DNA of 29,363 bases from a virus (IMGVR_UViG_2713896897_000016:1-29363); one strand, 5' to 3'; positions 19,644 to 24,006 are shown, numbered from the stretch's first letter. The notes: generated from the sequence alone by a model not told the origin. Translations and numbers: made by a program.

Positions 19644-20333
19644 TTAAATCAGCCCTGCGGATTTGCGGGCGTTATATTTTTCCAGTAATTCTTGCGCCGG
19701 AGTTTTCCCTCTCGGAGCACAAGGTGCCGCCAGTGCGCGACGAATTGGCGGGATCGGCTTGCCGTCCATTACGCGTTTTTCCCAGTCAACCAGCAGCTTT
19801 CCAGCGAGCGCGGTTAACTCACTTTCGGTCATCTGGCCCTCCGTTCCCCGGCGGCGTAACTCAATACACAGGTGGTACATAACCGGCTGTGTCCACGGGT
19901 ATTGCTCACTCGTTGGATAACGAAAAACCAGCTTTCGCCAGTTCCAGTACTCGGTCATGACGTCAGCGGCGCAGATACCCAGCACGCCTTTCCCTTCACG
20001 GCACCATGCGATGAACTGACCAGGTGAAGGCCAGAAAGGCGACGCACTGGCGCGAGCCTTTGCCATGCCGTTTGATAACTGTTCACGCTGGCTGATGCCT
20101 GCCTCTGCGAACGCGGCGATCCATTGCTGCTTTGCGGTTTTTTCATCGGCAGCGGTTTTTAAATTGGTCTGCGTGGAGGCAGGAAAAACCTGTCTAAGCT
20201 GTCTGAATAGCGCGTCAACAAGGTTTTCAGCTTCGGGATTAATAACCCTTGCCTGATCTGCGTTAGCGCCCGACATGCGCGATAACGCACGCCCATCGCG
20301 GTTTTCAATTGCGCGGTATAATTCGGTTGTCAT
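19644..20333 (-). CDS. P: replication protein P (helicase loader, lambda P-like)
   Basis: PFWPSPGQFIAWCREG and surrounding segments match lambda P (PFLPSPGQFVAWCREE) as recalled; follows O with ATGA overlap. Confidence 0.85.
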   Translation of the reverse strand: MTTELYRAIENRDGRALSRMSGANADQARVINPEAENLVDALFRQLRQVFPASTQTNLKTAADEKTAKQQWIAAFAEAGISQREQLSNGMAKARASASPFWPSPGQFIAWCREGKGVLGICAADVMTEYWNWRKLVFRYPTSEQYPWTQPVMYHLCIELRRRGTEGQMTESELTALAGKLLVDWEKRVMDGKPIPPIRRALAAPCAPRGKTPAQELLEKYNARKSAGLI

Positions 20334-21142
20334 ATAAAATCACTCCAGGCCTCAGGGCTGTTCCAGTGCTCTGAATCATCGCCGTGGTTTAAATCTTCGT
20401 GCCGCTGCTTGCGTCCTCTGGCTTCACGCTGTATCGCGAGCGTGTCCCACTTCTCACGCAGTTTTGCAGGAGATAAAATATTCGAGCACCAGAAGGAATC
20501 ACTGGCTGCCCATTTGAATAACTCACAGATTTCACGGTGTGAGCGATTATCCAGCGAACGCATCATGCGGACATCATTTGCCCACGAGGTCATATTTCGG
20601 TTTGTTGCAGACGGCCTGATTGTTTCAATCATGGCGGAAAGCCACTCAGCACAACGCAAATCATCAGCGCTTCCCCACTTTGCCATGGACGGGGTATAAA
20701 TCACCGCGTCAGGATGGGCTGATAAAAATTTCTGTAATTGCTCGTCAGGGGATTCGCCAGAATTCTCTGACGAAGATCTTTTAGTATTTACTTTCTTTTG
20801 TCTTTTGTGTGTCCCTGTTTTGGTGACATTATTAATGCTGTGATGTGAGCCGTTAATATCCCAATCGGCAATATTTTTATTTATACCAATTAACCCACAT
20901 TCACGATCTATAACCTTCATGGATATAAGCTCGTTTTTCGCAGCATTAACTTTTTGCCGCGGCAATCTGGTTATTTCAGCTAACTGCCCATCCGATATTC
21001 GGTCCATTTTTTTATTAAACCCGTATGTTTTGCGGCATACTGCGTGCGCAACTTTGCTTTGAACTTTTGTCAAATCTGCGCCTATCAGTGCCTCATAAAG
21101 ATCATTAGCAATGCGCGTATAACCGTCTTCAATTTCTGCCAC
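20330..21142 (-). CDS. O: replication initiator protein O (lambda O-like)
   Basis: N-terminus DGYTRIANDLYEALIGADLTKVQSKVAHAVCRKTYGFNKKMDRISDGQLAEITRLP matches the lambda O origin-binding domain as recalled; basic low-complexity linker mid-gene. Confidence 0.8.
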   Translation of the reverse strand: MAEIEDGYTRIANDLYEALIGADLTKVQSKVAHAVCRKTYGFNKKMDRISDGQLAEITRLPRQKVNAAKNELISMKVIDRECGLIGINKNIADWDINGSHHSINNVTKTGTHKRQKKVNTKRSSSENSGESPDEQLQKFLSAHPDAVIYTPSMAKWGSADDLRCAEWLSAMIETIRPSATNRNMTSWANDVRMMRSLDNRSHREICELFKWAASDSFWCSNILSPAKLREKWDTLAIQREARGRKQRHEDLNHGDDSEHWNSPEAWSDFI

Positions 21143-21161: not shown

Positions 21162-21608
21162 TTAGTGCCCTGCCGGGATCACCGTGTTAAATAACCGATT
21201 GAACGCCTCGCGCGCCTCCTTCCCCTCTTTGCACAGCTCGCGATCAGGCGCGCCCAGGTTGACGGCGTTTAAAAACTCCGTGATCTCCTTGAGAGCCAGA
21301 GCAGATAAATACTGCGGCGCATCAGGCATTGACACGGCAGCACTACGCAGAACAGGCATGGCGCGTAATGCCGGGCCTGTCAGTTCTGCCGCCATAGCGC
21401 TATAGCGTGGGCCGTCACAGTTCTGGAAAATACGGCGCACCCCTTGCCTAGCGTTGTCCTGGTCACTGTCTGGGTCGGGTAGTAAACTGCCGCCTCCCTC
21501 GTAGTGATACTGTGCTGCTATATCCAGGCCGACGGTTTGCCAGCCCTCGCTCGCTGCCCACTGATTAATAGCCGTGGCAACGGCATCAATCGACGGAGTG
21601 ATTTGCAT
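21162..21608 (-). CDS. YdaT-like (CII-like) regulator
   Basis: GWQTVGLDIAAQYHYEGGGSLLPDPDSDQDNARQGVRRI resembles Rac YdaT as recalled; sits between Cro-like gene and O. Confidence 0.45.
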   Translation of the reverse strand: MQITPSIDAVATAINQWAASEGWQTVGLDIAAQYHYEGGGSLLPDPDSDQDNARQGVRRIFQNCDGPRYSAMAAELTGPALRAMPVLRSAAVSMPDAPQYLSALALKEITEFLNAVNLGAPDRELCKEGKEAREAFNRLFNTVIPAGH

Positions 21609-23089: not shown

Positions 23090-23148
23090 CGCTATAAAAC
23101 AGATACTTGAAAAAAATCGGCAATAAATCACGCCAAAATTAAGTTTTA

Positions 23149-23179
23149 ACTTGATTTTAATTTTAGCTATAGCTAACAT
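23149..23179 (+). promoter_or_regulatory. candidate early-left promoter with overlapping operator palindrome
   Basis: TTGATT (23151..23156) - 17 nt - TAACAT (23174..23179); 14-bp palindrome TTAGCTATAGCTAA (23163..23176) overlaps spacer and -10 and shares the TTAGCTA half-site with the region upstream of the repressor gene. Confidence 0.4.
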
Positions 23180-23736: not shown

Positions 23737-23942
23737 TGAAACACCAACACTACGGCACTAAATTAGTTGAGCGCGGAGAGGTGAAGCCCGGAACATTATT
23801 ATTGTACAACGGGAAAATTTACACCGCGTCCGCAAATGTCAAAGCCGGTTTGCATATTAATACGCTACTAGAAAAAACGATGATTAAAAGCAACTTAATC
23901 ACAGTTTTTTTAGATGGTGCAGGCGAGCATTTAATTAACTAA
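23733..23942 (+). CDS. kilR: KilR-like killing protein (cell-division inhibitor family)
   Basis: PGTLLLYNGKIYTASANVKAGLHIN...ITVFLDGAG resembles Rac KilR [21 protein letters not shown]...IKVFLGRDG as recalled. Confidence 0.6.
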   Translation: MMKHQHYGTKLVERGEVKPGTLLLYNGKIYTASANVKAGLHINTLLEKTMIKSNLITVFLDGAGEHLIN

Positions 23943-24006
23943 TCAGAATTAAATTTATTTATGCCCTAACAGGCAGGGATAACCACATTTAATAGCAGGT
24001 CCGATT

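Follow-up and report, generated by a model that had tools for sequence, protein, structure and literature searches.

A replication origin that lies inside the initiator gene O is a textbook element of lambdoid phages. In lambda, the origin (39034 to 39160, in gene O) is placed between the sequences for the N-terminal DNA-binding and the C-terminal P-binding domains of O and consists of four iterons (TCCCTC-N6-GAGGGA), an A-rich tract and an inverted repeat, which flanks the AT-rich tract and is counted as part of the origin; a P-family gene follows directly downstream. By analogy with lambda, O dimers in intact relatives of the locus described here would bind to 19-bp palindromic iterons set in an array and assemble into a bent O-some, which on supercoiled DNA transcribed from pR would open the adjacent A-rich tract, and the C-terminal domain of O would then bring P-DnaB to the opened tract.

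Origin opening depends on the binding of O to multiple iterons (PMC5043065). As summarized in PMC7466680, unwinding takes at least a fragment with two iterons and the AT-rich tract (Dodson 1986, as cited in PMC7466680), replication in vitro requires the AT-proximal pair of iterons (Wickner & McKenney 1987, as cited in PMC7466680), and three iterons suffice for normal growth of lambda (Moore 1981, as cited in PMC7466680). In the Stx phages P27 and 933W, each iteron matters for plasmid establishment (PMC7466680), and mutation of one iteron of six in a P27-derived plasmid abolished transformation (PMC7466680, Table 2). Small in-frame deletions in the origin make lambda ori-minus, with initiation lost in cis, and the r93/r98 class lacks 24 bp and with them one iteron (PMC6022878).

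The locus described here lies in a lambdoid prophage of Escherichia albertii, within a stretch of DNA of 29,363 nucleotides (IMGVR_UViG_2713896897_000016) that was analyzed as a whole and is called the window. It resembles ori-lambda in its position inside the O gene between the two domains, in the order iteron, A-rich tract (about 36 to 40 bp) and inverted repeat, of which the tract and the repeat align almost base for base, and in the P-family gene directly downstream. Unlike ori-lambda with its four iterons, it has a single one of the class TGTCAC-N7-GTGACA, and its AT-rich tract is 36 nt long vs about 40 nt in lambda. We consider it likely that this segment (20742 to 20828) is an ori-lambda-type origin that has collapsed from six iterons to one and is inactive or severely weakened.

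Origin elements in the linker of O

The initiator gene of the window (Table 1) encodes a protein that matched the O family (Pfam PF04492, Phage_rep_O) over residues 1 to 94 (E = 3.5e-35). BLASTP of this protein against lambda O gave 48% identity over 253 aa (E = 9e-79), including the C-terminal half, which aligned to lambda O residues ~180 to 272. The protein is on record in identical form as WP_059216007.1 ('replication protein [Escherichia albertii]'), and in it a shortened linker joins an N-terminal iteron-binding domain to a lambda-O-like C-terminal domain; it is shorter than lambda O (270 vs 299 aa) and lacks the N-terminal 21 residues of the latter. The start of the P gene overlaps the stop of O, an arrangement that is the same in lambda. 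A cI-like HTH gene on the plus strand is followed by divergently oriented P22-Cro-like, YdaT/CII-like, O and P genes, all on the minus strand, and from this gene order and these families the region is a lambdoid early-right operon. A promoter and terminator scan, in which a cro-side early promoter for the O-P module did not stand out, had no signal beyond that expected from shuffled sequence. In place of lambda cII the window encodes a 148-aa protein, whose homologue in the prophage of E. coli STEC384 (see below) is named 'toxin YdaT family' in RefSeq and which has Pfam YdaT_toxin among its precomputed matches; it matched PHROG 163, 'CII-like transcriptional activator' (E = 3.9e-16), and our own Pfam scan of this protein at E <= 0.01 gave no match.

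Table 1. Positions of the features in the window (counted from its first nucleotide) and of related elements
Feature	Position	Strand	Description
O-family replication initiator gene	20330-21142	minus	270-codon ORF, 270 aa, GTG start
P-family helicase-loader gene	19644-20333	minus	Pfam PF06992, Phage_lambda_P, E = 6.5e-52
Single iteron TGTCACCAAAACAGGGACA	20810-20828	minus	19-bp hyphenated palindrome, O-sense reading; class TGTCAC-N7-GTGACA
Deletion junction interval TGTCACCAAAACAG	20815-20828	minus	14 nt common to iterons 1 and 6 of relatives
A+T-rich element CACAAAAGACAAAAGAAAGTAAATACTAAAAGATCT	20774-20809	minus	36 nt, 75% A+T, 61% A on O-sense strand
Inverted repeat TCGTCAGAGAATTCTGGCGAATCCCCTGACGA	20742-20773	minus	14-nt arms, 4-nt spacer, 86% complementary
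Inverted repeat plus AGATCTTTTA	20742-20783	plus	intrinsic-terminator-like, 14-bp stem, antisense to O
TCTTTTG pair	20794-20808		2.1 tandem copies
AT run aatatttttatttatacc	20870-20887		codes for GINKNI
148-aa protein gene	21162-21608	minus	at the position of lambda cII
ParB N-terminal-like gene	8596-10020	minus	
ParB N-terminal-like gene	9983-10720	minus	
Small-terminase gene	7363-8352	minus	
Tandem repeat TTTTGGACCGATT	8189-8218		x2.3, in the 5' part of the small-terminase gene
Tandem repeat TGATATACC	556-584		x3.2, near the window start
Iteron-iteron spacer GACAAAAACTGTCACC			example from a multi-iteron array

The origin elements were found at O codons ~105 to 134, in the linker between the N-terminal DNA-binding and C-terminal domains, where the GC content was low (0.34 to 0.41 over 20700 to 20999 vs about 0.49 to 0.61 in the flanks). 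When the reverse complement of the window was aligned with the lambda origin (J02459, four iterons annotated at 39034 to 39118), the iteron of the window fell on lambda ITN4, followed by the AT-rich tract and then by the inverted repeat. The tract aligned with lambda 39120 to 39159, the high-AT tract of ori-lambda, and by this alignment is the homologue of the tract where unwinding occurs. The 40-mers that overlap it were among the least stable 1 to 2% of the window with respect to duplex stability. In all relatives surveyed, a tract starting with CACAAAAGAC follows the last iteron (mean of 74% A+T over 40 nt, n = 73), and it is retained even beside different, unrelated initiator C-terminal domains.

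The inverted repeat flanks the AT-rich tract on the side far from the iteron and codes for SSENSGESPDE. Of its first 30 nt, 29 are identical to those of lambda (TCGTCAGAGAATTCTGGCGAATCCtCTGAC), though the two proteins are only 48% identical, and as a DNA hairpin it had a dG of -7.2 kcal/mol (z = -2.0). Read on the plus strand, the repeat and the T-run next to it have the appearance of an intrinsic terminator, which we treat as incidental. Judged by its alignment with lambda, the segment is clearly a lambda-type replication origin locus by ancestry.

An earlier, sequence-only reading of the window had placed a possible origin inside the O gene by analogy with lambda. The location was right, as indicated by the O family membership and by linker DNA homologous to ori-lambda, and the analogy proved sound in that the last iteron, the AT-rich tract and the inverted repeat all align with ori-lambda. 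The two copies of TCTTTTG on which that reading had drawn are indeed present (TRF score 30, which is the minimum threshold) and amount to a trivial 7-mer repeat, the complement of CAAAAGA motifs inside the AT-rich tract. The AT run to which it had also pointed was found as well and belongs to the least stable 40-mer within the O gene (20853 to 20892), but it is not the unwinding element. As such a candidate it was rejected, being on the wrong side of the iteron, that is, upstream of it, coding for the conserved GINKNI (GPNKNI in lambda, a motif of the O N-terminal domain) and aligning to lambda coding sequence upstream of ITN1.

No clear iterons of 18 to 20 bp had been recognized in that reading. 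Repeat finding across the O gene, as had been proposed there, likewise revealed no family of 18- to 20-bp repeats, but one 19-bp iteron had been overlooked, together with the inverted repeat and a 141-bp deletion (see below); iterons had escaped notice because the 29-kb window has just one. A lack of detectable iterons had been named as grounds for abandoning the origin, and with one iteron this is nearly the situation in the window, yet ancestry marks the segment as an origin locus. A search of the window with the iteron motif (exact and with 3 mismatches) gave 1 match, with 0.01 expected by chance. This site scored 27.9 bits with a PWM made from 73 distinct iterons of relatives, and the next-best site elsewhere in the window scored 9.4 bits vs a training minimum of 15.3 bits. 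PWM scans near the iteron and across the window detected no degenerate iterons or half-sites, and among the tandem and dispersed short repeat arrays sought in the window as signs of another origin none was iteron-like. The position in the O linker, the AT-rich tract, the inverted repeat and the downstream P gene were all present, and a multi-iteron array of 18- to 19-bp hyphenated-dyad repeats was absent. Because this defining array was not found, the segment is filed not as a functional ori-lambda-type origin but as a degenerate derivative of one.

A 141-bp gap relative to six-iteron relatives

The closest relatives of the locus are prophages in the complete genomes of E. coli STEC384 (NZ_CP091029) and STEC379 (NZ_CP091024) and one metagenome contig, each of which carries six iterons; the metagenome contig (ULSO01042213.1) has the same six-iteron array and is an independent source. 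The O genes of STEC384 and STEC379 are 95% identical to that of the window and 141 bp longer. Alignment with STEC384 O gave a single clean gap (columns 315 to 455, 141 nt) between flanks that are about 95% identical, and STEC384 shares with the window an identical AT-rich tract, an O that is 95% identical outside the gap and the same cI/cro/YdaT/O/P module. STEC384, STEC379 and PhiR12_2 (PV340550), the closest isolated viable phage, have iterons of the same class as the window and an identical last iteron, TGTCACCAAAACAGGGACA. In number, however, they differ, with six iterons in STEC384 and STEC379 and four in PhiR12_2 vs one in the window, which lacks the 141 bp (47 codons).

The six 19-bp palindromic iterons of STEC384 are, in order, TGTCACCAAAACAGTGACA, TGTCACCAAAACAGGGACA, TGTCACCGATTTGGTGACA, TGTCCCCAATTTGGTGACA, TGTCACCAAAACAGTGACA and TGTCACCAAAACAGGGACA, and iterons 1 and 6 start at 315 and 456, 141 nt apart. 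The iteron of the window has the left flank of iteron 1 and the sequence and right flank of iteron 6, and it is the same as the AT-proximal (last) iteron of STEC384, of locus L086, of PhiR12_2 and of most IMG/VR loci. With TGTCACCAAAACAG common to iterons 1 and 6 and a distance of 141 nt between their starts, the window allele is exactly what one unequal crossover or slip during replication would produce. By comparison with the relatives, a single event of this kind between the first and the last of six iterons removed the 141 bp; a lone iteron remained, with the AT-rich tract and the inverted repeat beside it, and O and P stayed in frame. The gap equals 47 codons and is in frame, and O (270 aa) is without stops and P is intact. 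What is particular to the window is this natural in-frame collapse of an array to one iteron. The segment is an origin locus, as the sequence-only reading had proposed, but not a normal one, since one iteron stands where close relatives have six and others three to six.

Within the STEC384 array (O nt 315 to 474, corresponding to 3315 to 3474 of locus L002; the same in L086, 254 to 413), iterons 5-6 repeat iterons 1-2 perfectly over 43 bp, and the start-to-start spacings are 24, 24, 36, 33 and 24, all multiples of 3; most relatives have a lambda-like spacing of 20/24/23. The six-iteron array looks as if it grew via an in-frame 117-bp duplication. Because its spacings are multiples of 3, any iteron-to-iteron recombination within it stays in frame. 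The Stx phages P27 and 933W resemble STEC384 in having six-iteron arrays inside a lengthened O gene, but their iterons are of the lambda class (TCCCTC..., oligonucleotide table in PMC7466680), and it is in STEC384 that the spacings are all multiples of 3.

We assessed iteron numbers at 80 IMG/VR loci with genes for related O proteins. Complete O genes of the TGTCAC class (n = 69) carried four iterons at 43 loci, five at 23 and six at 3, and none had fewer than four. Three to four iterons were visible at the 7 loci where O was cut by a contig end, three to five were present at 3 loci with other classes (TGTCTC-N7-GAGACA and TTTACC-N7-GGTAAA), and 1 locus with an interrupted ORF (L017) had at least three TGTCAC iterons. 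At each of the 80 viral loci, as in the viable phage PhiR12_2, the count is three or more, mostly four to six. The TGTCAC iteron class is widespread in the databases. Full-length O homologues among the matches listed were 282 to 375 aa long, and O of the window, at 270 aa, is shorter than all of these. The protein homologue search gave no relative above 59% identity among the matches listed, the phage collection contained no megablast match to the O gene, and a scan of species-representative genomes with the O protein gave only an irrelevant match in Bacillota. An exact search with the pattern of the upstream array boundary had 0 hits in viral contigs and found one six-iteron contig in metagenomes, and no second one-iteron allele was recovered. 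The 90% protein cluster comprises only O of the window and one 104-aa partial protein, so that in these databases the one-iteron allele stands alone.

Two further observations were made on the arrays of the relatives. At L047 (nt 139+295..381) and at L048 and L049 (nt 1501+288..401), iterons of the classes TGTCTC-N7-GAGACA and TTTACC-N7-GGTAAA (5 copies) occupy the same position in O, and behind each array come the same CACAAAAGAC AT-rich tract and GAGAATTCTG(G/A)CGAATCCTC repeat; it seems that a specificity module, made up of the N-terminal domain and the iterons, is exchanged while the unwinding module beside it stays constant. The last iteron is almost always CAGGGACA and not the palindromic CAGTGACA, both in the window and in PhiR12_2 (O nt 422 to 440, which is nt 1862 to 1880 of L087). 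In relatives with lambda-like spacing it translates into S-P-K-Q-G-H, and a T at the asymmetric position would give a TGA stop (CAG TGA), so that the asymmetry of the AT-proximal iteron may have been conserved by coding constraint. The window reads its iteron in another frame (V-T-K-T-G-T), and there the G has simply been inherited.

Predicted function of the one-iteron origin

Because one iteron is fewer than the two-iteron minimum of ori-lambda, and fewer than in any arrangement reported to function, the origin is predicted to be inactive or severely weakened. By analogy with lambda, a one-iteron origin of this kind is probably inactive or badly weakened: it would not be able to assemble an O-some, and the prophage would be copied only passively with the chromosome. 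The closest functional analogue, as far as the comparison with lambda carries, is formed by the ori-minus r mutants of lambda (Rambach r93, r95, r96, r98 and r99), which like the window have in-frame deletions in O that remove origin elements and keep the translation of O and P; an in-frame deletion in O that preserves the frames of both genes is indeed what the window contains. The r mutants differ in being laboratory-selected survivors of replicative killing that lost 12 to 24 bp and with them either an iteron or some of the AT-rich tract, whereas the window has a natural deletion of 141 bp in which five of six iterons are gone and the AT-rich tract is intact. The dN/dS of O vs STEC384 was 0.20, and the small and large terminase, portal, protease and major head genes were full length. 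O, P and the late genes being still intact, the lesion looks recent.

Several points weigh against inactivation. The two-iteron minimum was measured for lambda O with lambda iterons, and O-ori systems differ in affinity and requirements (PMC7466680); the AT-proximal iteron is the one that was kept, and transcription through the origin could partly compensate for the others; and intact, constrained O and P together with intact late genes would fit a still-replicating phage equally well. In that case the single-iteron origin would still fire, with one O dimer, or oligomers nucleated by it, opening the tract with the help of pR transcription and supercoiling, perhaps at the cost of a lower burst. 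We regard continued firing, the main rival reading, as unlikely. It is favored by a retained iteron that is AT-proximal and nearly invariant in relatives, with the AT-rich tract and the inverted repeat intact, by intact O, P and late genes with O under purifying selection (dN/dS 0.20), and by a natural iteron number that is flexible (three to six), lambda being normal with three in the account that PMC7466680 gives of Moore 1981. However, fewer than three iterons were seen in 0 of the 80 viral loci and in 0 of the 2 complete E. coli genomes, nor were they seen in the metagenome contig or in PhiR12_2; the minimum for lambda, in the earlier work as cited in PMC7466680, is two; loss of one of six iterons kills P27 plasmids (PMC7466680, Table 2); and the dN/dS of 0.20 mostly reflects history before the deletion. 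The specific proposal that a natural one-iteron lambdoid origin supports O/P-dependent initiation, one O dimer beside the AT-rich tract plus transcription being enough in vivo, appears improbable to us.

The absence of five iterons could also be due to the assembly, if a real multi-iteron array of E. albertii had been collapsed by a short-read assembler. The window comes from a 40-kb short-read draft contig (BBVG01000029.1, GCA_001514595.1), the locus is hard to assemble, as seen from three E. coli draft contigs that carry the same O allele, break off 2 nt short of the first iteron and so yield 104-aa 'partial' proteins (P0122), and the STEC384 array contains the perfect 43-bp duplicate of iterons 1-2 and 5-6. 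Collapse of that duplicate, the only long one inside a STEC384-type array, would leave two iterons, however, and not one. Further, the junction AATAA + TGTCACCAAAACAGGGACA + CACAAAAG contains 20- to 32-mers that are absent from a STEC384-type array, and a de Bruijn assembler would therefore need reads containing them. The exact 270-aa protein was also found in a second source (Logan), on a contig of 40456 vs 40448 nt, and 2 samples carry the contig. Finally, real recombination would be expected to give just such a gap, which preserves the frame and runs exactly from one iteron register to another. In view of these points an assembly artefact is quite improbable, and assembler collapse of the 43-bp duplicate as its cause was rejected, as it predicts two iterons and the window has one. 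One of the E. coli draft contigs (ABTIFN010000011.1, GCA_040522485.1; L085 2001 to 2312, at the end of a 167-kb contig) ends at ...CACAGCATTAAT.

That the segment is merely a low-complexity basic linker of O, with the origin elsewhere, we hold to be very improbable: the window has no repeated iterons, and low GC and TCTTTTG could reflect lysine-rich coding (K = AAA/AAG), but conservation of the DNA exceeds that of the protein, with an AT-rich tract and inverted repeat close to those of lambda at 48% protein identity, the CACAAAAGAC tract is kept beside unrelated C-terminal domains, relatives bear iteron arrays at exactly this spot, and no other iteron-like array is present in the 29-kb window.

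Wider meaning and other features of the window

The main gain from this locus concerns annotation and method. Homology can reveal a lambdoid origin where repeat finders see nothing, and comparison with near-identical relatives exposes an in-frame lesion that calls of 'intactness' based on ORFs would miss; in the window no gene looks damaged, but the origin, a cis-acting element, is probably dead. The collapsed origin, provided that the lesion is real, would be a natural counterpart of the lambda r mutants, in a prophage disarmed at its origin and not in its genes. A weaker version of the proposal on one-iteron initiation would, if true, make array collapse a recurrent, host-favored route to the loss of autonomous replication and to escape from replicative killing with the genes kept. 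If, conversely, a one-iteron origin works, the two-iteron minimum would be lowered and the need for a multi-dimer O-some questioned. Iteron arrays are breakpoints of short-read assemblies, and replication modules of prophages in draft genomes need care.

Outside the early region, two adjacent ParB N-terminal-like genes are situated just upstream of the small-terminase gene; their families are PHROG 5475 and PHROG 620, 'ParB-like partition protein'. Of the two tandem repeats found at a distance from O (Table 1), the one within the small-terminase gene is a possible candidate for a packaging site. The 40-mers with the lowest stability and the highest A+T content in the window were located outside the O gene, at 13327 to 13688, 23136 to 23175, 23929 to 23968 and 27292 to 27382, and these sites appear to be intergenic or foreign low-GC segments.
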